From: Candidatus Melainabacteria bacterium 17Bon1m
GTDB lineage: Bacteria > Cyanobacteriota > Vampirovibrionia > Obscuribacterales > Obscuribacteraceae
NCBI GenBank assembly: GCA_032128875.1
Contig: JAVLKG010000018.1
Coordinates: 12,935-76,934 of the forward strand
Length of the DNA: 64,000 bases
Direction: 5' to 3'
Shown piece after piece: positions 58 to 48,027 of the stretch. Position numbers and translations under genes: made by a program. The stretch's first letter is position 1. Each line of letters opens with the position of its first letter. Below the pieces are notes generated by a model. That model did no database searches and was not told where the DNA came from. It saw nothing but the letters and a program-made list of their open reading frames with translations.

Positions 58-91
58 TTTCAAAACATTTTGAAAATTCGCCACTTACTAT
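58..91 (+). promoter_or_regulatory. Degenerate direct-repeat promoter (TTTCAA-aacat-TTTGAA-N11-TACTAT)
   Basis: Same 6-5-6-11-6 geometry as the TTTGAY boxes elsewhere; lies just upstream of ORF 127 (RBS AAGGAG). Confidence 0.5.
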
Positions 92-126
92 CCTCGTGTC
101 GGTAGGGCGCAAGGAGCGCGATTCTA

Positions 127-780
127 ATGAGTTTTGAACAAGGTTTTAAAAGTGACAGTGGCTGTGTATCTTCACCATCCATGATTCATGAAGCGATGGA
201 TCATGTGAAGACGACCTGGTCGAATGTGCTGCATGGAAAAGCGTCAACAACTGAATATCTTGAAGCTGCTGCAGAAGTGATTGTTGTTGCGGCAGGAGCG
301 ATCGCTCTAAAACAAGGAGGCAAGATGCTTGCCTCGCGCTTCGGGGCTTCGGAAGACATTGTTGCTCGACAAATTCGCCAAAATTACGAGACAATGCGTG
401 AGACAGAGAGAGCTGTCGTCAAGGAAATTAGAGCGGCAGCAAAGGCCAATGCTGAGTATCTTAAAACAGCAAAAAGAACCCCTGACGGCGCAATTATTGT
501 TGACTGGATGCCTGGCCAATGGACTGTGAGTAGTGGACCTGGGAACACATTCGGGCTTGGGCAGCCGTCTGCGTATGACAAAGTCAAACTTGCGGCCACC
601 CAACGATCGGACTTTGCAAATATTCCGAGTGATTCGGCGCTGTTCAAACTGCGAACTGTAGCCGCCGATGCAGTGAAGTATAAGGACAAGGACAATCTGG
701 CAATGCACTCAGGAGTTGGACAGGGTTTGTTGTCTGCGTTGAGTAGCAATCCTCCATCAAAGTTGAAAATATCAGGCTAA
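127..780 (+). CDS. Hypothetical protein with one hydrophobic segment
   Basis: 217 aa ORF, AAGGAG RBS, polar N-terminus then AAAEVIVVAAGAIAL. Confidence 0.75.
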   Translation: MSFEQGFKSDSGCVSSPSMIHEAMDHVKTTWSNVLHGKASTTEYLEAAAEVIVVAAGAIALKQGGKMLASRFGASEDIVARQIRQNYETMRETERAVVKEIRAAAKANAEYLKTAKRTPDGAIIVDWMPGQWTVSSGPGNTFGLGQPSAYDKVKLAATQRSDFANIPSDSALFKLRTVAADAVKYKDKDNLAMHSGVGQGLLSALSSNPPSKLKISG

Positions 781-839
781 TTCCAGGACAAACCAGACCA
801 GGTTCTGTACACTAAAAGACACTTCCGGCTCGAAAGTGT

Positions 840-1637
840 TTGCGCGTGAAAACCATAGAAAAAGTTGTTGCACTGGCTCTTCTTTTGTGTGGTTTCAGCC
901 CGCTTTACCTCAATCCGGCTCTTGCGCAACTACAATCCACAAAAGAGCGCTTGACCGAAACGGACTTGGCAAAGGAAAAAAAATCACGCACCGCACAGCC
1001 GCCTAGGGCGAGTTATTCACGCCTTCTTGATACTTCGGTTGCGCTCTCTCGTGAATATCTGGATAAAAACATCCACGTTTGTAGCTTGTCAATTCAGCGC
1101 AATCCTAATTACGTTGAAGGGTACATGGTCCGTGGTTTGAGTTATTGGCGACTTGAGGATTCAGCGCATGCAAGTTGCGATTTAGAAAAAGCCTTCAGCC
1201 TCTCTCCGAATTTAGCAACGCCAGAGATGCTGCGCATCTTGGCAGAGTGCTTTGCGGAAGAAAACAAAAATGAGAAAGCGATAAAAGCGCTGACCACCGC
1301 AATTAACATGGGGAATCCAACAGGTTTGTTATATTTGCGCCGCGCTCAAGCCTATTCCCAGGCGAAAAACTTTGAGTCTGCGTTTCAAGATGCGCAAAAG
1401 GTCGTTGCGATGAATCCCCATAAGAGGTGGGCGCTAGAGTTGAGAGGGCATTTGGGCATGAGTGCCGGCAAGTATGCGCTTGCTGCTCGTGACTTCACTG
1501 AATGCATAAAACTTTCACCAGAGGAAGGCAAGCTCTATGCGAATAGAGCAAATGCGTATGACGCGCTAGGTAAGAAAAGTGAAGCGCTTGCAGATAGGAA
1601 AAAACGTGATTCGCTGAATTCTGTTTTGGGCTATTGA
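840..1637 (+). CDS. Tetratricopeptide repeat protein, probably exported
   Basis: N-terminal signal-like segment; TPR motifs (YMVRGLSYWRL, YLRRAQAY, YANRANAYDALG). Confidence 0.85.
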   Translation: MRVKTIEKVVALALLLCGFSPLYLNPALAQLQSTKERLTETDLAKEKKSRTAQPPRASYSRLLDTSVALSREYLDKNIHVCSLSIQRNPNYVEGYMVRGLSYWRLEDSAHASCDLEKAFSLSPNLATPEMLRILAECFAEENKNEKAIKALTTAINMGNPTGLLYLRRAQAYSQAKNFESAFQDAQKVVAMNPHKRWALELRGHLGMSAGKYALAARDFTECIKLSPEEGKLYANRANAYDALGKKSEALADRKKRDSLNSVLGY

Positions 1638-4618
1638 AGATGAACCGCGCTGCTCGTCCGTTACCGAGATACAGACCCTCTGTTTTTCGGCATGGCTTGC
1701 TTTTGGTTTTGATACCGGGCATTTTGAGCAGTATTTTCCTTATTGCGCTCAATCAATTTTGGATGGCGACATCTACCGTTGCTCGAGAAGAGCAGGTACA
1801 CAGCAACTCTGTGTTGGATATAGCCATAAGCTTCAATGCCCTTGTCACCTACTGCTACGACATCATGACTCTCAGCTTTGATCGCGTTCTGAGTTTGGAA
1901 CAGCGCACAGAGACGGACAAAAAGGCGTTTCTGATTTCGCTTGAGCGAATTGATAAAACGAAGAAAGACAGCAAAAAGGAAATTGCCTTTGACAATTTTC
2001 GAAACTACGCATTAATGCTGAAAGCGCATGCAGAGAAGCTTTCGGAGCAAATGTCCAATGAGAGTTTTGATAGTAATATCAACAGATTCATTCGATATAA
2101 AGGGCTGATGGCTAAAGGTGTTGCACTGGCAGAGTCGCTCAGCAATTTTTTTCGGGACGAAACTGAGGAGTTGAAAGAGTTACGACAACAGCTGCAAGTG
2201 CGAAGAAATGAACTCAACCTTGTATCAGCATTCGGGATACCAGCGATTTTTTTTGCATCGCTTCTATCCCTATATATTTTTGCCAGAAGCATTTTTTTGC
2301 GAATAAGAGCGCTTGCTGCAAGCGCCTCAGCCTTTCCTAATCTGCCGGAGCGAAGGCGCTCAGAAGCAGTTTTAGACGAGTTTGGTTATGTTGATGAGGT
2401 AATTTCCGAAGCAGCCGAAGACCTTCGGAATGCCTCTGAGCGGCGTCAGGCATTCGTCCAGATGCTAGCTCACGATATGCGGTCTCCCCTTATGGCTACG
2501 CAGGTCTATGTAGATGTTCTGCAAGAGATGCATCATGTGAACCTGTCTGAGCAAGGAAGGCAAATGTGTAGGTCGGTCAAAGATAATCTCACAAATGTGC
2601 ACGATTTCGTTACTGACTTGCTTACCGCCGAAAAGCTTGAATGTGAGCCCATCGAGCTGAGCTTGATCGAGCTCTCTCTGAATAACCTCGTTGATGATGC
2701 GCTGGGCTCTGTAATGGAGCCGGCCGACGAGAAAGACGTCGCCATTGAGTATGACGGCGCTGAGGTATTTGTCCGCGCGGACAGGGAGTATCTTTTGCAG
2801 GCGCTTGTTTGTTTTCTGAAAGCCGTACTGCAAGCGGCGCCGCACGGTAGCATCATTTCCTTGCTTACCTCCATTCACGAAGGCAATGTTACCTTGACCT
2901 TCGCCGCTTCGTGCGACAGTGATGAGGAAATTGAAGATCTGTTCGATCCTCTGCTCGCGCTGGGAAATGACAATTCTTTTCAAATATCCGGCTGTGGACT
3001 GAATTTAAGGATTGGGCGTTTGATCGCCGAGGCACATTCGGGCAGTGTGGGTGGAAGGAAAACCTCACAAACTCATCGAGATTTGTGGCTGAAATTGCCC
3101 TTGCCTGAATCGCGAGCAGTGCTCAAAACTGGTTCAAGCAGTGCAGATTCGTCATCCACCATGCTTGGCTATGGCTGGCGCGATCTTCTGAGCTCCTACA
3201 GCTTTCGCAATTGTGCTCTGGTTTTTCTTGCCGCTCTTATCCTTCAGTCTGTGTGGATTTTATGGCTGGGCAGTCGAATCGAAGAAGCGCGAAAGTTGTC
3301 TGTTCAAGCGGCACGCCAAACGGATACGGTCTTTGGTTTGAACAAATTATGGTTAGATCTGTTTCTCGCCAATAATGCAATGGGCTTTTATCTTGCGACC
3401 AAAGACCAGGCTAATCGAGTTCTTGCCAAGGAAAATTTAAAGAGCGCTGAAGAACTGGTCGGTTCACTGAATCAGCTCTTTTACGGCAGAGCCGAAGAGT
3501 CTGGAACTTGGTCTGATGTTCGATCTTTTGTTTTAGAAGAACTTTCCGCATTGAAGAGCATGGATGCACAGAGTGAAGAAGAACAAGTGGCCGCGGACCT
3601 CGGCATTCTTGGAAGGCGAATTGAACGCGCCAGCGAATTGAATGCACTCATGCACACTCTGAGCGACTTTGAGTTGGGGCGTCTTAACTCGATGCGTCTC
3701 AAGCAAGGCAATTTGCGCGAAAGATTTCAGAGCATCATCTTGCTTGCTGTTTTCAGCAATTTACTTACAACCTTGGGATTGCTTTGGCTCTTTAGCCGCA
3801 CCATCTCGTTTAGATTGGACATGCTGGTAAAAGTCGCCAGGCAAATTCCTTCTCGTCTGCCAATTAATCAGATGATCAGCGGAAAGGACGAGATTTATCA
3901 GATTTATTGGCTTCTATGCAGGGCTGCGCTGAATTTGAAGGATGCTTTTGACCAACGCAAAGTGATGATGAATTTGCTGTCCGCCAATATCGGAAAGCCG
4001 CTGGCCAGCGTGCAGGCAGACCTTTCCAGGCTTAGCGAAATTCTGCCGGACGACATCTCGGAGAAGAGTCGCGTCAATCTAAAGTCGGCAAGCGAAAATA
4101 TCAAACGGCTTCTTGCCCTTGTTGAAGACTTACTCTTGCTGGACGAGTTGGAGCTCGGCGATTTAAGAATCGAAAAGAGTTTGTGTTCCGCTCACGAGAT
4201 TGTAGATGCATCCATAAATTCCGTGGGAGGAATAGCCCTCAGGAAAGACATCACCATAGTCAATGAATGTGCTGAGTTTGAGATCGAAGCGGATAGAAAG
4301 CGGCTTATCCAGGTGTTGGTCAATTTGCTAGGCAACGCAGTCAAATTCTCACCGAGAAATTCGCGCATCCGCGTCGAAGGAGGGCTGTACGACGGGAAGT
4401 TTCGTATCGCGGTGGCGGATGAAGGTCCGGGTATCAGCAAGGAAGACCTGGACAAAGTTTTTGCTCGCTTTTATCAAATGCAGGAGCACAAGAAGCAGGG
4501 CTTCGGTCTCGGGCTGTCCATTTGCGTTTTAATAGTGCGCTCTCACGGCGGTGAGATAACAGCTGAGAGTGAAGTCGGCAAGGGAAGCAAATTCATTCTT
4601 ACTCTGCCTGTGAGCTGA
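1634..4618 (+). CDS. Tandem (duplicated) membrane sensor histidine kinase
   Basis: Two TM-sensor-TM-HAMP-DHp-CA modules; H-box AHDMRSP in module 1; intact N/G1/G2 boxes (NLLGNAVKFS, DEGPGI, GFGLGLSIC) in module 2. Confidence 0.9.
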   Translation: MKMNRAARPLPRYRPSVFRHGLLLVLIPGILSSIFLIALNQFWMATSTVAREEQVHSNSVLDIAISFNALVTYCYDIMTLSFDRVLSLEQRTETDKKAFLISLERIDKTKKDSKKEIAFDNFRNYALMLKAHAEKLSEQMSNESFDSNINRFIRYKGLMAKGVALAESLSNFFRDETEELKELRQQLQVRRNELNLVSAFGIPAIFFASLLSLYIFARSIFLRIRALAASASAFPNLPERRRSEAVLDEFGYVDEVISEAAEDLRNASERRQAFVQMLAHDMRSPLMATQVYVDVLQEMHHVNLSEQGRQMCRSVKDNLTNVHDFVTDLLTAEKLECEPIELSLIELSLNNLVDDALGSVMEPADEKDVAIEYDGAEVFVRADREYLLQALVCFLKAVLQAAPHGSIISLLTSIHEGNVTLTFAASCDSDEEIEDLFDPLLALGNDNSFQISGCGLNLRIGRLIAEAHSGSVGGRKTSQTHRDLWLKLPLPESRAVLKTGSSSADSSSTMLGYGWRDLLSSYSFRNCALVFLAALILQSVWILWLGSRIEEARKLSVQAARQTDTVFGLNKLWLDLFLANNAMGFYLATKDQANRVLAKENLKSAEELVGSLNQLFYGRAEESGTWSDVRSFVLEELSALKSMDAQSEEEQVAADLGILGRRIERASELNALMHTLSDFELGRLNSMRLKQGNLRERFQSIILLAVFSNLLTTLGLLWLFSRTISFRLDMLVKVARQIPSRLPINQMISGKDEIYQIYWLLCRAALNLKDAFDQRKVMMNLLSANIGKPLASVQADLSRLSEILPDDISEKSRVNLKSASENIKRLLALVEDLLLLDELELGDLRIEKSLCSAHEIVDASINSVGGIALRKDITIVNECAEFEIEADRKRLIQVLVNLLGNAVKFSPRNSRIRVEGGLYDGKFRIAVADEGPGISKEDLDKVFARFYQMQEHKKQGFGLGLSICVLIVRSHGGEITAESEVGKGSKFILTLPVS

Positions 4619-4640: not shown

Positions 4641-5318
4641 TCATTTAGTGGCTTCAATCGTATAGCCGGAGCCAAGAACAGTCTTTACGAAGTCTTCTTT
4701 TCCTATCTTGGCTAATTGCTGACGCAAAGTGCCCATCCAGGTTCGCACCGAATTGGTTGTGCCATTGCTTTCCGACGTCCACACAGCATCCAGCAAATTT
4801 TGAGCAGTAAAGGTTTTGTTCGGATGCCGCATCAAATACTCTAAGAGCGCGCATTCTTTGGCTCTCAATTTGACCTCTTTTCCGTCTGCCTTAGCCAATC
4901 GCTGTTCGGGCAACAATTCCAGTCCATCGATGTTGAGGTTTTCTACAAATTGAGTCGAGACTCTGCGCAAAAGCCCTTTCAGCCGAGCTGTCAATTCGCG
5001 AATATCGAAAGGTTTAACCATGTAGTCGTCAGCCCCAGAGTTGAAGCCGGTTTCTAAAAAGGAAATATCGTTTCTGCCGGTGAGAAACATAACCGGCGTG
5101 CTACCGCCGCGAGATCGATAAAGCCTGCAAAGCTCATCGCCCTCTATACCTGGCAGTCCCCAATCAAGCACAATAACGTCGTATTGAAAGTTTTTCAGCA
5201 GCTGTATTGCATCTTCGCCAGTGGCGGCTGTTTCAACCGTATGACCCTGCAACACCAGAAAGTTTTGCACTGCGTTGCAAAGCTCGAGATCATCATCAAC
5301 AAGAAGAATTTTGGCCAC
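4641..5318 (-). CDS. OmpR/PhoB-family response regulator
   Basis: Receiver (LLVDDD, LDWGLP, GADDYMVKPF) plus winged-helix C-terminus (KTVLGSGY). Confidence 0.95.
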   Translation of the reverse strand: MAKILLVDDDLELCNAVQNFLVLQGHTVETAATGEDAIQLLKNFQYDVIVLDWGLPGIEGDELCRLYRSRGGSTPVMFLTGRNDISFLETGFNSGADDYMVKPFDIRELTARLKGLLRRVSTQFVENLNIDGLELLPEQRLAKADGKEVKLRAKECALLEYLMRHPNKTFTAQNLLDAVWTSESNGTTNSVRTWMGTLRQQLAKIGKEDFVKTVLGSGYTIEATK

Positions 5319-5579
5319 TGTGCTAAAGCCTCAATCGGCGACAGGTTTATGTTATCAAACTGTTTTGCCCAGGCAGGTTTTTTGTTGTGCATTAATGAAA
5401 AATCGGTTCTTTTTGTCCGGTTTCTAATCGGAACCCAAAGTCGAAGCGCTCTGCCAGCCGAAGCTCTCAGTCAGCCTGGGTTGTAAAGGTTGGCACCTTG
5501 AGGTAATCAGTCACAAGAACGACGTTTTGCAATGAGAGCGCTGCCATTATCTGCCAAACAGCTTGGCGGGTGGGGCATT

Positions 5580-6941
5580 ATGGCATCAAAGGGAATCAAA
5601 TTACTGTCGTTATCAATGGCAGCATCGGTGGCATTTTCAACCTTGACACCGGTGTCGGGACAGGAAGTTGCTACAGATGTAGAGTTGCGCGGCAGCGCTT
5701 CGCATGGTAGCGATGTGTCGTCGCTCGAAGGGATAGACCGTAAAATACTTGCAAAGGAAATGGAGCTTTTGCGGTTGAACGCTGAGTTTCGAACGCACTA
5801 TCTGGGTCCGCAGAAGTGGAAAAAGCGGCGGCAAAAATTTTATGATGCCACAGGTGGTGCCATTGCCAATGCCGGCGACGTTACTTTGATGAGCCAGTTT
5901 TACCGATATTGGAAAAACCCTGGGGACGGGCTAGCTCACAAGGGGCGTCTGGAAGCTGGTCCAATTATTGTTATGGTCGCATACCTCACCTTGGGCGGCT
6001 TATATGCAGCTGAAGGAGCTTATGATCTCGTGTCCGATTACCGATCGACGCGCAAAGGAATGGACGCGCATTCCGTCTACAAGCGGGCTTTTGCCCTAAA
6101 GGGCGAAATGGACAGTCTACTCACTGAGAGAAATCAGACTGCCGGAGGCACATCTCAGTCTGTAGTCAGCCTTGCTGAAGAGAAGGTATTGAGAGATATC
6201 AGGGACCTGGCATTGCTGGAATTTTCGCGGGTTTATGTTGATTCGAGGAAGTTGAAGGCGACTCGAGATCTAACTACTCTCGGCACCATCGCAGTTTGTG
6301 GCACTGGAGCATTTCCCGGCGCGCTAGGTGTCGTCAGAGGGCTGAGAAATATCAATCTCAAGCAGGTGGGAGGCGGTGGGATAGGTTTTCTCATCTCCGG
6401 AAGCACTCTCACGGCAGCGCCTGTTTTAATTCACGGCGGAGCTTATATCACAGGCAAGATTTCCGCCGCCAAGTTGGAAAAAGCCTTAGCGGATGCAAAC
6501 GTCAAATCCGCCGCAACCCTAGATAAAGACATTCGCCGCCTGGTGCAAGTGGGCGGCTCGGACAATCAGAATTACACCGCATTTTCAAAATTGCTTGCCG
6601 ATCGGCAAAAATTACTGGATAAAGAGAAAAATAGACACAAGTGGGAGGTTCTGGAAAGCTTGGCCTCATATGCCGCTAAAGGCGGGCCGCAAATTGCTTT
6701 TGGAACAATGCTAACGAGAGCCGGATATAAATACTACACAGATCCTGTTAACGCTTTTCGTGGAGTTGCACGTTCTGCCGTTGTAAATGAGGTGAGCTGG
6801 GGCAACTGGATGCTTGATGTCGTGCAAAAAGGAACTCGAGACGAGATCTATAATTTTAGGCAAGGCAAGATCGCACCGGCTGATGCTCCATTCAGCTTGA
6901 AAAACACGGATCTTGTGCAATTGGAGAACACATTAAAATAG
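5580..6941 (+). CDS. Hypothetical exported/membrane protein
   Basis: Long ORF; signal peptide-like MASKGIKLLSLSMAASVAF; Gly-rich hydrophobic segments; start could be 5532. Confidence 0.75.
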   Translation: MASKGIKLLSLSMAASVAFSTLTPVSGQEVATDVELRGSASHGSDVSSLEGIDRKILAKEMELLRLNAEFRTHYLGPQKWKKRRQKFYDATGGAIANAGDVTLMSQFYRYWKNPGDGLAHKGRLEAGPIIVMVAYLTLGGLYAAEGAYDLVSDYRSTRKGMDAHSVYKRAFALKGEMDSLLTERNQTAGGTSQSVVSLAEEKVLRDIRDLALLEFSRVYVDSRKLKATRDLTTLGTIAVCGTGAFPGALGVVRGLRNINLKQVGGGGIGFLISGSTLTAAPVLIHGGAYITGKISAAKLEKALADANVKSAATLDKDIRRLVQVGGSDNQNYTAFSKLLADRQKLLDKEKNRHKWEVLESLASYAAKGGPQIAFGTMLTRAGYKYYTDPVNAFRGVARSAVVNEVSWGNWMLDVVQKGTRDEIYNFRQGKIAPADAPFSLKNTDLVQLENTLK

Positions 6942-7144: not shown

Positions 7145-7161
7145 TTTGATGCAGATTTGAC
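7145..7161 (+). promoter_or_regulatory. TTTGAY direct-repeat box (no clear -10)
   Basis: TTTGAT-gcaga-TTTGAC. Confidence 0.45.
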
Positions 7162-7830
7162 TTTTAGCGGCACCACCGATAGTGGCGAAGCGCGGCTTCA
7201 TCACAGGAAAGCAAATGAATGCTTGACTAGTGGGCGGATTTTTCTGCATTCTTGAAAAAAAGAAGTTTCATTTGACGATAGAGGTTTGGTAACTAACCCC
7301 GGCTATGTGAGCAGTACTTTTTCGCGGATTTTCAGGCATTTGAGTGTGCCGCAGAATTGTCGGCACGAAAACAGGCTCAAAGGCAAAGGTCTTGCAGGCG
7401 GTCACCATCCTCATGATGGTGGCCAGCACCAGGCGAATTACTACATCGGTGTCACACTCAGGCAATTCACCGAAGCGATCAATTCTCGGGCGGCGACGCC
7501 CTCTTGATCTGGGACGGGCGGATGAGCGCCTCTCTATCTGGGAGCCGTATTTTGAAAAACGCAAGCACGCATGCGAAGGAGAAGGCAAATGACACTTAGC
7601 GATGCGCCGGACGACAAGGTGGTCGAGGCGTACTGACTAGGATTCAGAGCTGACCGCTTTCTGGGCTATTTCGAGAGAGGCACCGGCGCGAAACCACGCG
7701 TGCCGGTGTTTGCGCCGTAGTGAGCGTCGTCGGCGCGCATATTCCTTTTTTTCGCGGCTGACACAGGCGACTGTGGTCGGTCTCAACAAGCAAGTGTGCG
7801 TCGTTCGACGCAATCAGAAAGGATCATGGT

Positions 7831-8330: not shown

Positions 8331-8364
8331 TTTGATGATAATTTGACAGCTCGCGCGATATAAA
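8331..8364 (+). promoter_or_regulatory. TTTGAY direct-repeat promoter
   Basis: TTTGAT-gataa-TTTGAC-N11-TATAAA. Confidence 0.65.
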
Positions 8365-8454: not shown

Positions 8455-8962
8455 GCTGATTATATCTGCAAAGCCAAATTTGCGTTGGAAAAAACATAAT
8501 TGATATGCTGCTCGGAAGAAAAATCCGGGCCTTTCGTGCTATTGTAATGGTATCGCATATGGTGGCGCTGCGCTATCCTTGAAGCGTGTTAAAAGGTTCG
8601 GCGTCCGGCTTTTGAAGCCTGCCTGCACTCCGGTCGGAAGCTGCCGTCGGTTGTGAGATTCGCGTAAGCATTGCCAGTTTTATATGGCGTTTTTTCTTGG
8701 TGGATTTCGTTACCTGATGCTTGACTGCGGCGCTGCGCGGCATTCAAAGTGTTGATATCAATGTTCTTTTCCTTTTCTGCAAACAGGTGAAATTTCTGGC
8801 TTAACGCCGCATTCGCCGCAACATCTAAGTATCTTTCGCCGCACACTTCGTGCGCTGATGAAAGTCGACATGCAGTTCAGGTAGCTTTGCTCAATGCCAG
8901 TCTCTCTATTTCAGGCTGGTATCGAGCAGCGCTATGCGTTGCGAAGAACCGAGAGGTTGTTC

Positions 8963-9268
8963 ATGCTCAACACTGATACAGTTATGCGACTCATGCACAG
9001 GGCTCTTTTTGGAAAGGAATCGTGCGTCCTTTTCGTCGGCATAAAATTATTCGGTGCATTTTTCCAACTCGCCGGCGCTGCATCATTGGAAGCCGCTCTA
9101 TGGTCTGCAATCCCCTGGTTGGGATCGCTTTTCGTGGACGTCATCTGGTATACGACACCGGTGTTGTTGAAGAAAATAGCGCCGCTGATTCGACTGCCGA
9201 CGGTACCCTGGCGTGATAGTGCAATGTCAGTGATGGCGCGGCTTCGGCTGCGCTTCTCATTTGCTTAA
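8963..9268 (+). CDS. Hypothetical membrane protein
   Basis: GAGAGG RBS before ATG 8963; hydrophobic stretches; followed by hairpins. Confidence 0.5.
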   Translation: MLNTDTVMRLMHRALFGKESCVLFVGIKLFGAFFQLAGAASLEAALWSAIPWLGSLFVDVIWYTTPVLLKKIAPLIRLPTVPWRDSAMSVMARLRLRFSFA

Positions 9269-9269
9269 G

Positions 9270-9365: not shown

Positions 9366-9410
9366 CTTTCCTGTTGTTGAAGCTCATCACCTGAAGAAGG
9401 AGTTTTGCGA

Positions 9411-35126: not shown

Positions 35127-35127
35127 C

Positions 35128-39356: not shown

Positions 39357-39467
39357 AGGGCATGAGAGTGCCTGGGGGTGTCCGCCCTTTCATTATGAGC
39401 CGGGCGGGCGCTCATTTTTGCAATAAGAGAAGATCACGCGTCTTCTCTACAGAAAAGGAGACTGACT

Positions 39468-40310
39468 TTGTCAAAAGAAGAGAAAAAGCCACTGAGCGGA
39501 AAAACGCTCTTCATCACTGGTGCCAGTCGCGGCATCGGACTCGAAATTGGAAAACGTGCCGCTGCCGATGGTGCCAACGTCGTGGTTGCCGCTAAATCCG
39601 AGAGCGAGAATCCGAAGCTTCCCGGCACCATCTACACGGCCGCCAAGGAGATTGAAGATGCCGGCGGCACCGCACTGGCAGTAAAATGCGACGTGCGTAA
39701 CGAGGACGAGATCATTGCCGCAATTGAGGAGGCGATTAAGACCTTCGGCGGGATCGACATTCTCGTCAATAACGCTTCGGCGCTCTCCATGACCTCTACG
39801 GAAAAGACTGAGCTGAAGCGCTTTCGTCTGATGCATGAGGTCAACGGCGCCGGTTCTTTCTTCATGGCCAAGCACGCCATTCCCCACCTGCGCAAGGCTG
39901 CGAACCCGCACATCCTTACCATGTCGCCGCCGCTTTCGCAGATGTCCGGTAAGTGGCTGGGACCACAACTGGCTTATGCTATGTCGAAGTACTCGATGAG
40001 CATGGTCACAATGGGGCTTGCTGCTGAGCTGTCTCCTGATGGGATCGCAGCCAATTCGCTCTGGCCCAAAACCCTCATCGATACGGCTGCTGTTCGTCAT
40101 TTGCCGGGCGGTGAAGAACTTGTGAAACACGCGCGCTCCGCTCGTATCGTCGCGGACGCTGCATACCATATTCTTACGCGCTCTGCCAAGGAGTGCACCG
40201 GCCAGTTCTTCGTCGACGAGGATGTTCTGAGAGAGTCCGGCATCGAGGATCTCGAGCAGTACGCCGTGGTGACGGGCAACAAGTTGCACGCCGACATCTT
40301 CCTGGATTAA
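39468..40310 (+). CDS. Short-chain dehydrogenase, HSDL2-like
   Basis: TGASRGIG, NPKLPGTIYTAA, VNNAS, YAMSK, NSLWP. Confidence 0.93.
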   Translation: MSKEEKKPLSGKTLFITGASRGIGLEIGKRAAADGANVVVAAKSESENPKLPGTIYTAAKEIEDAGGTALAVKCDVRNEDEIIAAIEEAIKTFGGIDILVNNASALSMTSTEKTELKRFRLMHEVNGAGSFFMAKHAIPHLRKAANPHILTMSPPLSQMSGKWLGPQLAYAMSKYSMSMVTMGLAAELSPDGIAANSLWPKTLIDTAAVRHLPGGEELVKHARSARIVADAAYHILTRSAKECTGQFFVDEDVLRESGIEDLEQYAVVTGNKLHADIFLD

Positions 40311-40334
40311 GGCTGCGGTGTGATAGCTCGAACT

Positions 40335-40372
40335 GTGTATGCGCGAGAAATCGCGCATACACTTTCTACTTC
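40335..40372 (+). terminator. Intrinsic terminator
   Basis: gtgtatgcgcga-GAAA-tcgcgcatacac + pyrimidine tail. Confidence 0.8.
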
Positions 40373-40677
40373 TTCTAGCTTTCCTTCGTCACCGGTATAC
40401 TAGACAAGGTGGTAGGTCGTTAGTCTTCCGCCCGGGTATCAAGTGAAGTTTGGCGAATACGATGGAAAGCCTGTGCAAATCAAGGTCTATCCGCCTGGTC
40501 TTGCACGTGGTGTTGATTCGCCAGGCACAGTCGGTTATAGCACCGGGGTGGGTCTCGGGCGTGGAAGCAAGATGGTTATTGCTCCTCATATGGAATGACC
40601 ACAAAGGCTTCTTGAGCATAGAACAGGTAAACGGCCGGTAACGCTTCGCCGGCCTTCTTTGCTAATTCCGTAATACG

Positions 40678-40711
40678 TTTGACGAAAATTTGACGGGCAA
40701 ATGACTAGCAT
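40678..40711 (+). promoter_or_regulatory. TTTGAY direct-repeat promoter
   Basis: TTTGAC-gaaaa-TTTGAC-N11-TAGCAT upstream of the SLT gene. Confidence 0.72.
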
Positions 40712-40752
40712 TACAGTTGAGCTTCCAGCCGCCTTACCAGAGAGTTTCCAAT

Positions 40753-41853
40753 ATGACTGAATTGCATTCGCGTTCCTCTTTGGAGCGCCGCCATCCCCAT
40801 GAAGATCGTGATTCTGCAAATTCTCATGCCCGAGGCTGGGCTGATGTTTACAGCAGCAGAATAGAAAGACCCAATCCTTCCGTTTACCAGCCTGGACAGT
40901 CCGCGCACGAGTTTGTCCAGAAGCATTTGCATGGAACGGAACTGTATGATTCCGCCGAGACCAAAGGCGGGACGAACCGTTCGCACGGTGCCGCTGGCGG
41001 AGACAAAGGTCGCTCAGACAGAGCAGGCGGAAGCGAGCGCTCGGCTTTGGGGGCGCCCGATGATACCCAAAGGAAAAGGGAAGTACATGAAACTGGCGCC
41101 AAGATAGCCGACCATCTCAAGAAAGATCCTCATGACTTCAAATACGTATTTGGCGAGCTTGATGCATTGCACAAAAAGGACCCCGCACACCTGGGCGAAA
41201 ATCTGCGCGAAGTAAATGATGCCTTGCATGAGAAGGGGCTGCTCAAAGGAATGTCGATTGTTCGCGACAATAGAGATGGGCATGAAGGTTGGGCTGTCGT
41301 AGCTGAAGATAAGAGCAACGTAAATCCCAAACATAACAGAACGATGGTCAGCACCAGTCATGAAGCCCATGAGTCCTCGACATTGAAGCATCATTATTCA
41401 AGCATGCATTACAGACGCGGGCACTATAACGGTTGGCATCAATCCGTCGAAGGCGGTGGTGGCGGTGATGGTGGCTTCGATAAACACGCCGTTGGCGGGC
41501 ATGTTCCACCGGGTGCACGTCGCGAATTGATTGAAAAGGCTCTCCAACTGGCGGGTGTGCCGGTGACAGAACAAAATATCTCCGCTGTAAATAAAATCGT
41601 CACGCGAGAGAGCGGATGGAATCCGAACATTACAAACAACTGGGACATCAACGCCAAAAGAGGTCATCCCTCAACGGGTTTGATGCAGACGATACCCTCT
41701 ACGTTCTCTCGATATGCGCTGCCCGGAATGAACAACAATATCCATGATCCGCTCTCTAATCTGGTTGCAGGAATACGCTACGCAGAGGCGCGATATGGAC
41801 GGCACGGTCTGTCGGGTGTCGCCAAAGTAGCGAGCCGTCCGGGCGGATACTAA
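40753..41853 (+). CDS. Protein with C-terminal lytic transglycosylase (SLT) domain
   Basis: RESGWNP catalytic Glu, NNWDINAKRGHPSTGLMQTIPSTF, AGIRY..ARYG. Confidence 0.9.
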   Translation: MTELHSRSSLERRHPHEDRDSANSHARGWADVYSSRIERPNPSVYQPGQSAHEFVQKHLHGTELYDSAETKGGTNRSHGAAGGDKGRSDRAGGSERSALGAPDDTQRKREVHETGAKIADHLKKDPHDFKYVFGELDALHKKDPAHLGENLREVNDALHEKGLLKGMSIVRDNRDGHEGWAVVAEDKSNVNPKHNRTMVSTSHEAHESSTLKHHYSSMHYRRGHYNGWHQSVEGGGGGDGGFDKHAVGGHVPPGARRELIEKALQLAGVPVTEQNISAVNKIVTRESGWNPNITNNWDINAKRGHPSTGLMQTIPSTFSRYALPGMNNNIHDPLSNLVAGIRYAEARYGRHGLSGVAKVASRPGGY

Positions 41854-41901
41854 ATGGAAAAAGCAGAAATTGCTCACTCCTTGAAAGATTCGCTGCATCC
41901 A

Positions 41902-41935
41902 TTTGACGAGAAATTGATATCGCCATTCGTATAAC
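41902..41935 (+). promoter_or_regulatory. TTTGAY direct-repeat promoter
   Basis: TTTGAC-gagaa-ATTGAT-N11-TATAAC. Confidence 0.6.
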
Positions 41936-41940
41936 TTGTA

Positions 41941-42027
41941 CAGAGCTTATGTTTAACGCGACAGTGGCTCTCAGAGGACGAATAAAAAGGTGTCGAAGCT
42001 GGAGCCGGCTAGTCCGCTCCAGTTTTT
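41941..42027 (+). ncRNA. Candidate small RNA (or 26-codon peptide mRNA)
   Basis: Promoter motif upstream; ctggagc/gctccag stem + TTTTT on the plus strand. Confidence 0.35.
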
Positions 42028-42032
42028 GACGT

Positions 42033-42725
42033 TTAGTCCTTCTTCTTCTTCTTCTTTCCAGAAGGCATGCGATAACCCACTCTCGGAATATTTTCGATAA
42101 CTGCGCATGCGCTGTCGTCGATCTTGTATCTAATTCGCTTCAAGGAAGAACGCAGTGCCTCTCCCGTGGCATCGCTTTCGGAGTGCCAAACGCGCTCCAG
42201 CAGGGCGTTATTACTGAATATTTGATCAGGATGCCGCATGAAAAATTCAAGAAGAGCAAAGTCTATTGGAAGCAGGTGGATCTCTGTGCCTGCTTTGGAA
42301 ACCTTCCTGGTGGATGGATCGAGGACCAAATCTTTTACTTGCAAGATGTTTGCCGTTACCACCTGAGGGCGACGAAGAAGTGCGCGCAAGCGCGCTGACA
42401 ACTCACGCAAATCAAAGGGTTTGGTCAAATAATCATCTGCTCCTGCGTCCAGCCCCGATTCTTTATCGGTGATGGTACTGCGCGCGGTGACAAAGAGGAT
42501 CGGTGTCTTGCCGCCTCTTTCTCTAAACTCTTTGAGGATATTCATTCCCGACAGACCCGGCAATGACCAATCTAGAATTATCAAGTCGTAAGTGCAGCAG
42601 AGGAGTCGGTCCAGCCCTTCTCTGCCATCAACGAAGTGCTCGACAAGATGCTGTTCGGATTTGAGAAACTCGCAGACCGTGAAGCTCAAGTCTGCATCAT
42701 CTTCTACTAACAATATTTTTGCCAT
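42033..42725 (-). CDS. OmpR/PhoB-family response regulator
   Basis: LLVEDD, LDWSLP, GADDYLTKPF, winged-helix (ENIPRVGY). Confidence 0.95.
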   Translation of the reverse strand: MAKILLVEDDADLSFTVCEFLKSEQHLVEHFVDGREGLDRLLCCTYDLIILDWSLPGLSGMNILKEFRERGGKTPILFVTARSTITDKESGLDAGADDYLTKPFDLRELSARLRALLRRPQVVTANILQVKDLVLDPSTRKVSKAGTEIHLLPIDFALLEFFMRHPDQIFSNNALLERVWHSESDATGEALRSSLKRIRYKIDDSACAVIENIPRVGYRMPSGKKKKKKD

Positions 42726-42921
42726 GTGGTCTTTCTGGCGCGCGGGACGATACAAAATCATAAACCATCTTGGGCTAACTTCCATGACGCAAATAGCCTC
42801 CCAGGGGGAGGCTATTTGTGGGCTCTGTCGTTAGGCGGGGGAAAAACTTTTGATTTCGAGTAGTGGGCGCACGTTTTTGCTGGGAAGACAGCCGTGCGCC
42901 CGCTCTCGGTTTTTGCTCAAG

Positions 42922-44019
42922 CTAATCGATATCGCGATTTCCTGTCGGATAGAAGGTGGCTTCGTCACTGTGTCCTGGTCTCAGGTTTAGATTAGGTCTT
43001 AAAGTTCGATTTCCGTAGGTGTCTATACTCGGTCCGAAATCGAGAGTTTGATCGTCGAGTTTCAATCCTACGCCTGCAGCTGCGGAGGAATTTTCACCGA
43101 CATTGAAGTGTGCTCCTGACCTGACGCCGAAAGCGTCCGCAACGCCGGTGTTCGCTCCAGTGTAAGCATTAAAACCTTGTGGTCCTATGCCGGCGCCAGC
43201 ATCAGCTTGCACATCTACGGGCCAGGCGCGTCCTCTGACATCGCCGCTGACACCGGTATTCTTGCCCAGGCTGGCACCAAAGTCCGCGTCTCCGTTAACC
43301 AGGTCGAAGAAATTGGCTCCTGCTCCCACTTCACTATGGATGCCATCTTTTTCAAATCCGAGATTTGCATTCGCTCTTGCGTGAAGCGGTCCGCCATAAG
43401 GCATGAATTCCGCGTTTACGCCAGTGTTCTTTCCGAGTGAAACTTCCGTACTGGCAATGCCGACATTTACTCCTGTTTCCAAAGAGCCGTCTCGCACTCC
43501 GAGTTTGACGATACCTAAATCCAGTCCCTGAAATTCGCCTCTGTCTCTGTTGTAGGCTGCATCATATGCTGGAGAATTCGGTGCTTCTGGCGCAAAATTA
43601 CTGTGAGGTGCATAACCAGGATGAGGGATTTCGACGGGTTTTAGATCATACTGAGTTCTTGTATCTAAATATTCAGCTCTCAATTTGCTTTCTGCTTCTC
43701 GCTGCCGAGCCTCGGCATCTATTTCGGCGTCTAATTCGGCTTTTAGTGCAGCTTCTTTCTGCCTTTGCATTTCCTTCTCGCGTTCTTCTTTCGCGTGTTT
43801 TTGCGCGGCTTCTTCGGCGTCGACCTCTTTCATTGCCTTCGACCAAGCCTTAGGATCTTTTTTCGAGATCTTTTCCCTTTGGTCTAATGCCCAGTCCCAA
43901 GCTGCTGGATCATCGCTTTTCCAGGCGTCCCAGGCGGCATGCGCAGACTGGATGTGTTGTTCGGTGTGCTTGTTTCCTGCGTGACTTGTTCTTCTTTCTG
44001 TGGTGGAATGTGCGTCCAT
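42922..44019 (-). CDS. Hypothetical protein: coiled coil plus Gly-rich beta-repeat C-terminus
   Basis: 365 aa, AAGGA RBS; charged helix then repeated AxAG/GVxA strands. Confidence 0.8.
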   Translation of the reverse strand: MDAHSTTERRTSHAGNKHTEQHIQSAHAAWDAWKSDDPAAWDWALDQREKISKKDPKAWSKAMKEVDAEEAAQKHAKEEREKEMQRQKEAALKAELDAEIDAEARQREAESKLRAEYLDTRTQYDLKPVEIPHPGYAPHSNFAPEAPNSPAYDAAYNRDRGEFQGLDLGIVKLGVRDGSLETGVNVGIASTEVSLGKNTGVNAEFMPYGGPLHARANANLGFEKDGIHSEVGAGANFFDLVNGDADFGASLGKNTGVSGDVRGRAWPVDVQADAGAGIGPQGFNAYTGANTGVADAFGVRSGAHFNVGENSSAAAGVGLKLDDQTLDFGPSIDTYGNRTLRPNLNLRPGHSDEATFYPTGNRDID

Positions 44020-44201
44020 AAAGCTGGTTCCTTGCGGCTCGAGAGGGAGATGACATAAGCCTTACGAGTAAGCGACTCTTCGTGCGGCGCTTTGCTTACA
44101 ACCATTTTTCCGGCAACTTATGGCGGATTTGTGGCGATGCAAAACATAGTCCACGCAAGCCTTTGGGGGATTTGCCCCTGGCTTTCGCCGCCTGTAAAAA
44201 C

Positions 44202-46040
44202 CTAATGCGAGTCTGATGCTTCGGAGATGTTTGCGAGTGCCTTTTCATGCAGTGGAATAGTGAAGATAAATATGCTTCCCACTGCATCCTGAGGGGATTC
44301 AACGACGATTGTGCCACCGTGCAATTCAACTATTGCTTTGCAGATTGCCAGGCCCAAACCCGTTCCGTTCATCTGCGTCGAGTCAATATCTTGCACCTGT
44401 TGAAATCGATTGAAGATCGCCTCTTGCATCTCTTTTGGCACGCCGCGTCCTTCGTCCTGAATGCGGACTTCAACTGCTTTGTCTTTTATAGATGCAGCAA
44501 ATTTTATGGTGCCGCCAGGAGGTGAATATTTGACTGCGTTCGAGGCTATATTGACGAGCACTTGCGCAATGCGGTCTGGATCTGCAAAAACATCAATCAC
44601 AGTGTCTGCAACTTCGATTTTTAATGACTTCTCTTCTGCTAGAGGAGCAATTATCTGAAGGCAAGAATCAAATAAGTTTGCAACTGGAATTTCTGTTTTG
44701 TTGAGTTGCATCTTTCTGGCTCTGATCTTTTCTATTTCCAGAAGATCGTTGATGAGAGTCAACATTCGTCTGCTTGCCGAATCCGCGCGAAGCACGAGGG
44801 TCTGAGCTGAATCCGGCAGCTCTCCTGCTTTCCCCAGAACGAGCATCTCGTGCAAATGGCGAACCGCAGTCAGCGGCGTGCGAAGGTCGTGGCTGACCAT
44901 CGCAATTACCTCTTGTTTTATCCTTTCAGCTTCTTTTCTTTCCGTCACGTCATGCAGTACGCAAAAGTATGTTTCTTCTTCCCCTGACCAATAGACTGAG
45001 AAGAGGATGTCTACTGGCTTCCCGTCTTTTCTGATCATTCTTGTTTCAATAATTTCTTGACCATGTGATTTCAAAAGGTTTTCCATGCAGCCTTTGACAT
45101 GGTCTTTGTCTTCCGGTAAAACCAGCTCGACGTAGGGTTTTGCAAGCAGCTCTTTTGGCTCGTAGCCTAATATTTTCACCGCGGCCGGATTAATAGCGGC
45201 GAATTTTCCCTGCTTATCGATAGAGCAAATTACATCATTGGCATTGTCGATTAATGCTCGCTCTACATGAATGGCTCGTGCAAGGGCTTCAGCCATTTTG
45301 TGAAACACCTGATCGAGTTGGGCGATTTCATCATGCCCTGATAGCGAGGGGAGCAACTGCTCGTTGCGAGCCAGCCGTTGGCTGTTCTCGGATAGGACAG
45401 CGAGTCTTCTGGTGATGCCTTTGCTGACGATAACGGCCAAAACTATTGTCAGAATGACGCTGAAGCCAATCGCTACGGATAATTGTTGGCTGATAAGCTG
45501 TCGATAGTAAGCTTGTCTTTCGGGACTCTTATCGCCTATTTCATGCTGGCTCCTAGCCAAAGAGAGCAGCTCTGGCGAGACTATCTGCTTCAGTCTCACG
45601 TTGAGCGATTTTTGCAGACGAATGAATTCTTCCATATCGCCTCGATTGAATGCCGCATTCATTGCATCAAGGCTATTATCAGCATCGCGGGCGCGCTCTT
45701 GGACCTGATTCATCAAAGCTGAAGCGCTTGCATCATCTTTAACGAGTTCGCTGACAAAGCGCATGTCCTGAAGCGCTTTCGCCACCATCGCGTCCTTGCG
45801 AGCTTTTACACGCGCATCTTGCGCAAGGGCTGCCGACTTCAATGTGGTCAGCATGTCATAGAAGTCACGCACGATGAGATTTATCGTGTCACTAATCTGC
45901 CTTGCTTTCTCAGCTTTGCGCGCTTCTTCCTGCGCTCGATTGTATAAATCGGCAAGTACTGAGTACGAGATCAATTCGAATATGAGCGGAACTGCAACAA
46001 GAATCAAACCTTTGTGAAAGAGAGAAATTCGAAGATGCAT
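44202..46040 (-). CDS. PAS-domain sensor histidine kinase
   Basis: TMs, HAMP, PAS, SHDLRTPL H-box, NIASNAVKYS, DEGRGV, GTGLGLAIC. Confidence 0.95.
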   Translation of the reverse strand: MHLRISLFHKGLILVAVPLIFELISYSVLADLYNRAQEEARKAEKARQISDTINLIVRDFYDMLTTLKSAALAQDARVKARKDAMVAKALQDMRFVSELVKDDASASALMNQVQERARDADNSLDAMNAAFNRGDMEEFIRLQKSLNVRLKQIVSPELLSLARSQHEIGDKSPERQAYYRQLISQQLSVAIGFSVILTIVLAVIVSKGITRRLAVLSENSQRLARNEQLLPSLSGHDEIAQLDQVFHKMAEALARAIHVERALIDNANDVICSIDKQGKFAAINPAAVKILGYEPKELLAKPYVELVLPEDKDHVKGCMENLLKSHGQEIIETRMIRKDGKPVDILFSVYWSGEEETYFCVLHDVTERKEAERIKQEVIAMVSHDLRTPLTAVRHLHEMLVLGKAGELPDSAQTLVLRADSASRRMLTLINDLLEIEKIRARKMQLNKTEIPVANLFDSCLQIIAPLAEEKSLKIEVADTVIDVFADPDRIAQVLVNIASNAVKYSPPGGTIKFAASIKDKAVEVRIQDEGRGVPKEMQEAIFNRFQQVQDIDSTQMNGTGLGLAICKAIVELHGGTIVVESPQDAVGSIFIFTIPLHEKALANISEASDSH

Positions 46041-46179
46041 TCTGGAATTCGATGGTTGCGGACAGACGTGAATATTGTATCCCGAAGAATTGTAGACATT
46101 AGGAGACGGTCAAACGTGGACAAGGCGGTCGATAATGTAAAGCCTCACGGTGACTGGATAATCGGCTGGCTCTGATGGA

Positions 46180-46213
46180 TTTGATGAGAATTTGACTGGG
46201 GCGCGTGCACCAT
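46180..46213 (+). promoter_or_regulatory. TTTGAY direct-repeat promoter
   Basis: TTTGAT-gagaa-TTTGAC-N11-CACCAT upstream of ORF 46286. Confidence 0.7.
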
Positions 46214-46285
46214 GTCAGCACCAATCATCTGCGCACAGCGATGCGAACCACGCCACCGATTTCAACAGCTGCAGGAGTTTTACGA

Positions 46286-47911
46286 ATGGCAGAGCAAGAT
46301 TTAAAGGGCAATTATGATTCACAGCGAGGCGTCGATAAAGAAGCGGCGTCTGATGCTAGGCAGGTAAGGTCGGTCTACGAGCACGAAGGTGCGCAAAAAG
46401 CAGTGCAACGTCTGCAGGCTGAAGTCGACTCTGTACCGGCGTCTCAACGTCAGGCTTACAGCGCCGCTCTTATGAAAGATCTGCAGTCGGACGGTAGTCG
46501 TGCCAATCTCTTGCCGGAGATGGCTCTTGCATTCGGCGACGCCCATAGGGACAGCGTTTCTGAGGGTGGGTACGTGACACGGTCGCGAATTGCTGCAGCA
46601 GTTCAGAATGAGAAAAATCCAGTCTATGCCGAGATGTACCGGCAGTTTGGCGACAAATTCAAAGATATTCGTCATGAGAAGCAGAATCAATCCTGGATAT
46701 ATGGAGATCACTCCTTTGCGCCCGGCATTCTCAATGACGCCAATCACTGGGTCGGCAACAAATTGAATGAAAAAGTTGGCGCGGCTTGGGGCGGTGGAGT
46801 CAGTGTTGATGATCTTGCAAAAAGAGTTGGTGAGGATGGACAGAAGATCGACAAGCGCAATAAAGATCGCCAAGCCCTTGGATTGCTCGCCAGCAAGCCT
46901 GAATTGTTCGATTACGTAGCGCAAAATGACGGGCAGATTTCTCGTTCAGATGCAGAAGCGTTTCGCGAGCAAGTGCTACTCGGCACGGGCGAGGAAGGAA
47001 AACGATTGAGAGAGCGTTTTGGCAAGACTCCTCTGGAGCAAGAAAGACTTACAAATGCCGCCGGCGCCCTGGTTGATTCTTTCGACCATCCGGCAAACTT
47101 GGACGGGGCAGCCGGTTCTGTCCACGAGGATGGTTGGGACCTATATGGAAACAACCCATTTGGCGGCGATTACATGACCAGGGAGAGCCTTGCTCGCGGT
47201 TTGGGTTATAGAAGCCCTCAGGATGCTCAAAAGAATGTTCACAGCGACGCTAGAGGTCTCCTCTCGGCAAATCCGGATGTTTCATCCGCCAATGATTTTT
47301 CTCAAACGGCTCAGCGCCGTGGAGACGGTCCCTGGCAGGTCTCGGAACATATGCTTGCAGGACAGAATAAACATTTCGAAAATCCGTTCGAAGCACAGAA
47401 GATGCTGACTGATGTTCTGAAGCAAAGTAATTTTTGGACAAAAGACAAGCAAGGCGAGCAGAAGGTGACGCCGGAAAACAGGAACGAAATGCTTGGCGCA
47501 ATAAAAGATGCTGAAGCGAAACGCTCAGAGCAGAGCGGTGCTGCTGAAAACAATGATCTATCCCGCTGGTTTGCCGCCCGGTATCCTGAGGAGATGGAGG
47601 GCAAGTCTCCTGCCAGAGCTGATGTTGAGCCACTATCGGACTTCGGCAATACGCGATTGCGCGGACCCAAGGACGGTCCAAGAGCGATAGCTTCGCGCAT
47701 GATTCATGGACAGGAGCAATTTTTCACCGATCCGCACAAAGCGGTGGCAGACCTTTCCAGCGCGATTGGAGTGAAGGCAGGCATTCATAATCACAGGAGA
47801 GGCGCAGAACAAGTGACCGCGCGAAACGTCGACAGCGTGATCGCCAACATCGAGAAGACAGGCAATAAAGAGCTGCTTGAATGGTTCAAGCGTCGATATC
47901 CCAAAAACTGA
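46286..47911 (+). CDS. Hypothetical protein with two C-terminal repeats
   Basis: AGGAG RBS; repeats DFSQT..GDGPWQV..ML.GQ..F..P / DFGNT..KDGPRAI..MI.GQ..F..P, each ending WFxxRYP. Confidence 0.82.
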   Translation: MAEQDLKGNYDSQRGVDKEAASDARQVRSVYEHEGAQKAVQRLQAEVDSVPASQRQAYSAALMKDLQSDGSRANLLPEMALAFGDAHRDSVSEGGYVTRSRIAAAVQNEKNPVYAEMYRQFGDKFKDIRHEKQNQSWIYGDHSFAPGILNDANHWVGNKLNEKVGAAWGGGVSVDDLAKRVGEDGQKIDKRNKDRQALGLLASKPELFDYVAQNDGQISRSDAEAFREQVLLGTGEEGKRLRERFGKTPLEQERLTNAAGALVDSFDHPANLDGAAGSVHEDGWDLYGNNPFGGDYMTRESLARGLGYRSPQDAQKNVHSDARGLLSANPDVSSANDFSQTAQRRGDGPWQVSEHMLAGQNKHFENPFEAQKMLTDVLKQSNFWTKDKQGEQKVTPENRNEMLGAIKDAEAKRSEQSGAAENNDLSRWFAARYPEEMEGKSPARADVEPLSDFGNTRLRGPKDGPRAIASRMIHGQEQFFTDPHKAVADLSSAIGVKAGIHNHRRGAEQVTARNVDSVIANIEKTGNKELLEWFKRRYPKN

Positions 47912-47935
47912 GTTAGCTCGAGAACCCAACCCTCC

Positions 47936-47970
47936 GGCGCCACCATCTCAGGATGGTGGCGCCTTGCCTT
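47936..47970 (+). terminator. Terminator hairpin
   Basis: ggcgccaccatc/gatggtggcgcc 12-bp stem. Confidence 0.7.
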
Positions 47971-47993
47971 CAGGTGCGTTTTTCCAGTCGTTC

Positions 47994-48027
47994 TTTGACG
48001 AAAATTTGATGGCTCAATTTCTATTAT
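47994..48027 (+). promoter_or_regulatory. TTTGAY direct-repeat promoter
   Basis: TTTGAC-gaaaa-TTTGAT-N11-TATTAT upstream of ORF 48059. Confidence 0.72.

Follow-up and report, generated by a model that had tools for sequence, protein, structure and literature searches.

Introduction

In Escherichia coli, the binding site of PhoB replaces the −35 element of the promoter and keeps a short, constant distance to the −10 element, and its half-site is of the CTGTCAT type. Boxes with a hexamer-N5-hexamer layout, about a dozen nucleotides upstream of the −10, serve PhoP of Bacillus subtilis, enterobacterial PhoP and WalR, and the PhoP and WalR regulons are chromosome-wide. HilA is an example of a regulator that is itself encoded in an island. 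Published accounts describe the PhoB site as 22 bp long and made up of two 11-bp direct repeats (PMC3978041), Streptomyces PhoP as binding 11-nt direct repeat units (PMC2275107), and SARPs as binding repeats of 11-bp period that overlap the −35 and as being encoded within the clusters they activate (PMC10972967). Here we describe a promoter element of related layout in a 64-kb stretch of the non-photosynthetic cyanobacterium Candidatus Melainabacteria bacterium 17Bon1m (Vampirovibrionia; Obscuribacteraceae). The stretch (contig 18, positions 12935–76934; hereafter the window) carries a tandem TTTGAY repeat followed at a fixed distance by a −10 hexamer, confined to one accessory island, and its likely reader is an OmpR-family response regulator encoded in the same island at 4641–5318. 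Coordinates are window positions unless a contig is named, and regulators are named by the first coordinate of their genes.

The element resembles the Pho box in having two repeats of 11-bp period and in its candidate reader, a receiver plus winged-helix protein. The half-site differs, being TTTGAY, as does the recognition helix: (I/V)DVH(I/V) is usual for the family and is seen in the 61344 protein of the window, whereas 4641 has SVRTWM. On the PhoB model, 4641 scored 168 bits (cut-off 296) and was outscored by at least 27 paralogues (27 at 190–226 bits), none of them over the cut-off; on the RppA model it scored 177 bits (cut-off 250). No phosphate-acquisition gene has a site of its own, and the PHO4 transporter gene at 27363–28604 likewise lacks one. 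The PhoB-model score and the non-phosphate targets rule out a Pho regulon; a link to phosphate control, as the label Pho-box-like in a first-pass annotation made from the sequence alone might suggest, is not supported.

PhoP-type boxes share the layout and differ in half-site, lineage and regulon content, the element described here being confined, in this genome, to one island. The likeness to Streptomyces SARPs, as far as the cited account describes them, extends to an OmpR-type DNA-binding domain, 11-bp repeats over the −35 and a regulator encoded within the cluster. However, by Pfam 4641 has only a receiver and a Trans_reg_C domain, the repeats here are hexamers, and the cargo forms no recognisable biosynthetic cluster; the receiver domain and the lack of a BTAD domain rule out a SARP identity for 4641. 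The architecture is a lineage-specific case of a well-known type of switch.

Results

A tandem repeat stands in place of the −35 element

Exact copies of the core, TTTGAYNNNNNTTTGAY (TTTGAY-N5-TTTGAY), occur nine times in the window, all on the plus strand (7145, 8331, 28840, 30042, 36346, 36763, 40678, 46180 and 47994), against a chance level of 0.11 (100 shuffles; maximum 1). Copies with one mismatch lie at 36156, 41902 and 50422 on the plus strand and at 36098–36082 on the minus strand. The 11-bp-period repeat reported by the first-pass annotation is thus real, and the nine −10-like hexamers it listed are all present, exactly 11 nt past the core. Its list of copies needed some revision: 41902 stands as a one-mismatch copy, 7145 had been called weak although its core is exact, and 36156 and 50422 had been missed. 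A hexamer follows at 11 nt at these last two sites as well (CATGAT and TACCTT), and at a weak copy at 58 (TACTAT). The exceptions are 7145, where GATAGT lies at 16 nt, and the minus-strand copy, where TATATA lies at 12 nt. Every site falls outside long open frames.

The window and fetched contigs of relatives together supplied a pool of 54 non-identical sites with an exact core; the contigs were picked for holding the motif, so that the pool is a selected set, and it includes orthologous sites. NANNNT stood at offset 11 in 35 of the 54 sites, compared with zero to eight sites at each of 39 other offsets. A purine occurred 7 nt past the hexamer in 45 sites and a C in none, which fits the expected transcription start (+1). 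The extended half-site reads R-TTTGAY-G, at positions 0–7 and 11–18, and an A directly precedes the second repeat in 51 of the 54. Relative to the inferred start, the repeats span about −40 to −35 and −29 to −24, and the hexamer −12 to −7. No conserved hexamer was found in the pool at the place of a −35, where a 17-bp spacing would put it in the variable spacer between the repeats. Apart from the core (17 nt), the −10 and the +1, positions carried close to zero information, with the 11-nt spacer and the flanks varying among copies. Head-to-tail repeats one helical turn apart (11-bp period) and a fixed distance to the −10 are the marks of class-II activator sites, and both were found. The motif is therefore a promoter element with the geometry of an OmpR/PhoB-family activator site in which the −35 is replaced, as the first-pass annotation had recognized.

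In this genome the element is private to one accessory island

We scanned the whole assembly (7.55 Mb, 35 contigs, 93% complete) with a 39-nt matrix that included the −10. All 11 hits above 22 bits were on contig 18 (range 22–39), and the best score elsewhere was 21.9; a reversed-matrix control gave nothing above 19.0 bits, and hence none above 22. Outside the island there were five hits above 20 bits, compared with none for the control. We rejected the weak hits elsewhere (19–22 bits) as sites: five of the six best fall within open frames of 426–3075 nt, several of these being receiver-domain genes, and resemble coding matches. The exact core alone occurs 17 times in the assembly (nine on contig 18, four overlapping in an array on contig 7 and four scattered), and the control pattern read backwards nine times. 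With a relaxed pattern (TTTKAY-N5-TTTKAY plus −10), seven of eight sites were on contig 18 (control 2).

The sites above 22 bits all lie in an accessory island of ∼50.8 kb (33–50834) that is absent from G007, a genome of the same genus (94% complete) with flanks 80%–93% identical to ours. G007 joins contig 18 position 12953 (window 19) to 63770 (window 50836) within ∼120 bp. Homology ends on the left at the stop codon of the flanking gene (30–32) and restarts on the right with the allantoicase stop codon (50835, minus strand). Motif copies begin at 58, 26 nt in from the left edge, and the final gene driven by the motif (50493–50738) stops ∼100 nt short of the right edge; the remaining 13 kb of the window, beyond the island, hold no copy. 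The motif is dense in the window because the window covers almost exactly the one motif-bearing island. The regulon is private to this island in this genome, contrary to the very large genome-wide regulon that the first-pass annotation had extrapolated.

In G007, G011, G012 and G001, the only DNA matches to window 28001–48000 were hits at the level of paralogues, in genes for kinases, regulators and dehydrogenases. G003, G005 and G006 carry the island beside the same allantoicase flank. Since G007 is closer to this genome than G005 and G006 are, loss in G007 is tentatively favored over a recent insertion here. The island does not look like an integrative mobile element (integrative and conjugative element or prophage): we detected no integrase, phage, sigma or polymerase family among the 59 and 26 open reading frames (ORFs) searched, some of which remain unassigned, no tRNA in a scan of the window, and no common repeat of 9 nt or more at the island edges.

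Several observations concern the composition of the island and the assembly. About half of the island proteins have no family assignment. Between 9779 and 50407 the island is rich in peptidases (FtsH-like, M13, S41, S49, two M50, rhomboid and trypsin-like), and patatin and SLT genes are also present. A GH25 lysozyme gene (52833–53603) lies just outside, as does a minus-strand ORF without a motif (56011–56985) that has a weak Pfam match to ATLF, the anthrax lethal factor N/C-terminal peptidase domain (E 7e-13). The contigs of the assembly form two composition groups, with a GC content of ∼0.49 (contigs 1, 2, 4, 6 and 10–12) and ∼0.53–0.54 (contigs 7, 8, 13, 18, 19 and 23), which also differ in tetranucleotide profile. 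We considered whether contig 18 comes from a foreign organism; in composition it clusters with six other contigs of the assembly, and synteny with the congeneric G007 extends over its flanks, both of which speak against this.

The array on contig 7 (∼232600–232735, minus strand) comprises roughly nine units phased at 11 bp, TTTGACTGACG or variants of it, and shares half-site and period with the promoter motif. It is intergenic and lies directly upstream of a GNAT-like ORF. We considered it as an additional docking platform but did not keep this reading, as the other 12 genomes of the genus lack even a four-unit version.

Orthologous promoters keep repeats, hexamer and spacing

Identity to the window across the island is 89%–94% in G003, 73%–88% in G008 and ∼70%–78% in G005 and G006. 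In these four genomes, the promoters orthologous to 40678, 41902, 46180, 47994 and 50422 retain both repeats and the hexamer at the same spacing. In the distant genomes, where coding identity falls to ∼70%, the upstream flanks and the 11-nt spacer of these promoters can no longer be aligned. Judging from sequence comparison, this pattern points to selection on the sites for their role as promoter elements. Since copies share only the core, the −10 and the start, they are not recent duplicates. The relatives carry further motif-plus-gene units that are missing here, including a divergent pair driving proteins of ∼100 and ∼650–750 aa in G003, G008 and G006, and another unit beside site 8331 in G003.

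A regulator with an unusual recognition helix tracks the motif

The candidate reader, an OmpR-family response regulator with receiver and Trans_reg_C domains, is encoded on the minus strand at 4641–5318. Its recognition helix, NSVRTWMGTLRQ, with SVRTWM, is identical in seven of seven orthologues and differs from the helices of 42033 and 61344; when all six frames of the genome were scanned, the signature SVR(T/S)W(M/I/L) occurred in one regulator only, 4641. Orthologues (78%–89% identity) are present in six of the 12 same-genus genomes (G002, G003, G006, G008, G009 and G010), and the best match in the other six reaches only ∼51%. All six relatives with an orthologue carry the motif, with two to three copies in the divergent region adjoining the regulator gene; in our genome, a 469-aa gene stands between the regulator and the copy at 7145. 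Among the six congeners without an orthologue, a motif cluster was found only in G005 (82% complete).

A 994-aa histidine kinase (1634–4618, plus strand), convergent with the regulator, is its presumed partner and stays adjacent to it in G008. The kinase has a HisKA match at residues 271–336 and a full kinase core at ∼774–993, and may be a tandem or fused kinase.

Of the regulators that the first-pass annotation had named, 4641 fits best, and 42033 and 61395 fit poorly. We rejected 42033 (42033–42785) and 61344 (61344–62150) as readers as their distribution does not track the motif. The former has orthologues in four of the 12 relatives (G003, G004, G006 and G008); G004 has the orthologue, yet none of its 13 cores has a −10, and in G005 the operon of 42033 is missing at the locus. 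The latter has an orthologue in seven relatives, including G007 (92% identity), sits outside the island, and was not found in the site-bearing G009 and G010; G007 has no cluster. The OmpR family is expanded in the genus, with 19–74 matches per genome at E ≤ 1e-40 (45–74 in the more complete genomes) and 52–54 in this genome, or ∼50 paralogues.

The copies close to the regulator gene (window 7145–7200 and loci L027, L031, L033 and L034) are paired, ∼100 bp apart, and have a common downstream GGTGGCG box. In this genome, G008 and G006, one regulator-proximal copy has (G/A/T)ATAGT at 16 nt. Such copies may reflect another mode of control, possibly autoregulation, or tandem small transcripts.

Regulator subfamily and promoter type recur together in other genera

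We searched genomes of other genera with the relaxed pattern. G081 encodes a 4641 homologue with 60% identity and the helix NSVRTWMNLLRRKL, and has 37 sites (control 2), 18 of them on the homologue's contig. G094, of the same genus as G081, also has the homologue and 28 sites (control 3), 13 on the homologue's contig; three further genomes of that genus, G033, G101 and G107, have no homologue at E ≤ 1e-75 and zero, one and zero sites. The homologue is likewise present in G025, with 12 of 17 sites (control 4) on its contig, and in G036 (helix HSVRTWMGLLRHKL), with five of 11 sites (control 2). G075 has three homologues (56%–60% identity) and 11 sites (control 1). G022 also has three (55%–59%) and six sites (control 2), and one exact core lies on a homologue's contig, 1.4 kb away. 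G078 has seven sites (control 2). Taken together, the comparison indicates that this type of promoter accompanies the regulator subfamily in four genera or more, with a patchy distribution among species.

G025 and G094, which are assigned to different genera, have identical 34-nt site strings that agree in order and spacing (contig C39 of G025, 49.5–91 kb; contig C40 of G094, 67.7–109 kb). This agreement could reflect a recently transferred common island or a binning mix-up.

Proposed mechanism and competing explanations

We consider it likely, with a probability of roughly 0.65, that the motif is the dimer docking site of one OmpR/PhoB-family regulator, most likely 4641 of the island together with the kinase encoded at 1634–4618. 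A single regulator, as proposed in the first-pass annotation, is the likeliest reader. A dimer of this regulator would dock on the two head-to-tail half-sites where a −35 would otherwise be, with a sigma-70-type −10 (TAnnAT) 11 nt past the repeats and a purine start 7 nt further. Lacking a −35 of their own, the promoters should stay silent until the regulator, phosphorylated in response to a signal presumably relayed by the kinase, binds and recruits RNA polymerase (class-II activation, as with PhoB). The targets would thereby be switched together: orphan hydrophilic proteins, an SLT-domain protein, an esterase-protease, small peptides and three short RNAs ending in terminators, and probably also a 20-kb protease-rich array. 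Several points weigh against this interpretation. G005 has a cluster of four to five sites, and no 4641 orthologue was found in this 82% complete genome; G078 has its seven sites with no homologue at E ≤ 1e-74. Homologues in other genera are 55%–60% identical, slightly above the paralogue level of ∼51%. Most regulator-proximal copies lack a −10 at 11 nt, and there is no site at the gene 5532–6941 or at the minus-strand operon 46040–42033. The same-genus genomes are kin, so that counts of co-occurrence among them overstate the case, and the regulator and its targets share an island, so that linkage alone could yield the association.

If the promoters are activator-dependent, they might still be read by another protein, such as 42033, 61344, one of ∼50 other paralogues, or an unrecognised DNA-binding protein of the island. 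The wealth of OmpR-family paralogues, the cluster in G005, the position of 42033 inside the island next to site 41902 and the many island proteins without a family make this worth weighing, but we judge it unlikely. Sites occur without a 42033 orthologue in G002, G005, G009 and G010, and G004 is the reverse case; 61344 is encoded off the island and is 92% identical in the cluster-less G007; and only 4641 has the motif beside its gene in all six relatives, as well as distant homologues in clusters. It is considerably less probable that the repeats form a repressor operator, possibly for the same regulator, over the −35 of otherwise constitutive promoters. The site does overlap the region that RNA polymerase must contact, and the proximal repeat of 7145 and of the orthologous copies, which is followed 16 nt on by GATAGT, AATAGT or TATAGT, comes near a standard −35/−10 pair. 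Yet the 12 sites with 11-nt spacing have no hexamer resembling a −35 at a functional distance, the proximal repeat lying ∼10–11 nt and the distal one ∼21–22 nt from the −10, so these promoters should be weak without an activator. An element of −35 type, recognised by an alternative sigma factor or by a mobile element's dedicated polymerase, would account for one conserved upstream element and a −10-like element at fixed spacing in one island and on one strand, as in phage-like elements. We regard it as very improbable, as a sigma factor has no need of a tandem duplicate one helical turn away, the spacing is 11 nt rather than 15–19 nt, and neither a gene for such a factor, polymerase, integrase or phage family (59 and 26 ORFs) nor a tRNA or edge repeats turned up. 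We give hardly any credence to recent duplication of a single promoter segment, as a mobile promoter or miniature element, without a common regulator, or to chance: many close copies do share one orientation in this genome, but their spacers and flanks differ and carry almost no information, each copy has its own orthologous place across species, and chance would supply only 0.11 copies. Docking of one OmpR/PhoB-family regulator thus remains our preferred explanation.

Promoters and their putative targets

About 12–14 promoters head nearly all of the plus-strand transcription units of the island. The leftmost (58–91, plus strand), a weak site with three core mismatches, precedes an orphan gene (127–780), a TPR gene and the kinase gene. 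The copy at 7145–7183 (plus) resembles the regulator-proximal copies of the relatives. The next site (8331–8364, plus, TATAAA) heads a co-directional array of 20 kb (8894–28604) encoding FtsH-like, M13 and S41 peptidases, a patatin, an acyl-CoA-dehydrogenase-like protein, a TPR protein and the PHO4 transporter. The first-pass annotation saw no copy directly ahead of conserved enzyme genes, which holds, yet these genes form the array downstream of 8331 and may be read as one operon from its promoter.

Most of the other targets are orphan genes, as had been noted. The site at 28840–28873 (plus, CATCAT) precedes a repeat-rich, hydrophilic orphan (28980–30041); that at 36346–36379 (plus, TTCAAT) an orphan of 89 aa (36473–36742); and that at 46180–46213 (plus, CACCAT) the orphan 46286–47911, whose family has 10 members among 5.8 billion proteins. 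By inspection of their translations by eye, all three orphans are hydrophilic with no obvious signal peptide. Other sites stand ahead of an SLT-domain protein gene (40753–41853; site 40678–40711, plus, TAGCAT) and of a gene for a protein with esterase/PHA-depolymerase-like and trypsin-like domains (48059–50407; site 47994–48027, plus, TATTAT). Among the one-mismatch copies, 50422–50455 (plus) precedes a conserved 81-aa ORF, the last gene of the island, and 36156–36189 (plus) a conserved 25-aa hydrophobic ORF (36223–36300, plus). The weak minus-strand copy (36064–36098) precedes a hexapeptide transferase gene (35979–35128), likewise a motif target in G010. The coding sequence of the 25-residue ORF is conserved above the surrounding DNA in G003 and G008.

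Three sites are followed by predicted short RNAs. The site at 30042–30075 (plus, TATAGT) precedes an RNA at 30082–30175 (terminal 14-bp hairpin and U-rich tail; z-score −4.5) and then one or more genes at 30716–34527. The site at 36763–36796 (plus, TATGTT) precedes an RNA at 36803–36895 (terminal 15-bp hairpin and UUUU; z-score −5.4) and then rhomboid, M50 and SDR genes (37392–40310). These two, lying ahead of co-directional genes, may be leaders. The one-mismatch site with TATAAC at 41902 begins a plus-strand unit (41902–42036) with an RNA of ∼90 nt (41942–42036; hairpin and UUUUU end; z-score −2.6), kept in G003, G008 and G005, and no plus-strand gene follows; in G005 the next promoter lies 287 bp past its counterpart. 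This RNA looks like a free-standing small RNA. All three are candidates for control by the regulator, whether as small RNAs or as leaders. Rfam at gathering thresholds gave no matches in the window.

RNA-seq contigs from three runs of one sample cover the stretch at flat depth over both gene orientations; such contigs cannot show starts, strand or level. They break at 30143/30161, 36837/36867, 40338/40361, 42795/42802 and 47942/47944, and the breaks coincide with hairpins in four of these five places (the exception being 42795–42802). Adapter sequence and a G-run occur at the contig ends 40338/40361, 42795/42802 and 47944. The contig ends do not coincide with the predicted starts, and may be reverse-transcriptase stops or true RNA ends.

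Discussion

In a literature search, we found no transcription factor site or regulon for non-photosynthetic cyanobacteria (Vampirovibrionia). The present analysis gives a precise promoter architecture and a named candidate regulator for an uncultured organism, and defines a regulon of ∼13 units made up mostly of orphan genes. It further draws attention to a subfamily of regulators whose recognition helix is non-canonical, and to small RNAs that the regulator may control.

A broader idea is tentative, and we would not bet on it: that the SVRTW-helix regulator subfamily and its −35-less promoters form a portable, self-contained module, patchily distributed in at least four genera of Obscuribacteraceae, that wires whole accessory islands, with their cargo of orphan hydrophilic proteins, enzymes degrading peptidoglycan and protein, micro-peptides and short RNAs ending in terminators, to an all-or-none two-component switch. 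If this were true, genes entering the island would acquire, or bring with them, the same promoter, as the additional cassettes in G003, G008 and G006 may illustrate, and the island would be a conditional programme of these non-photosynthetic cyanobacteria, serving, for example, attack, defence or differentiation.

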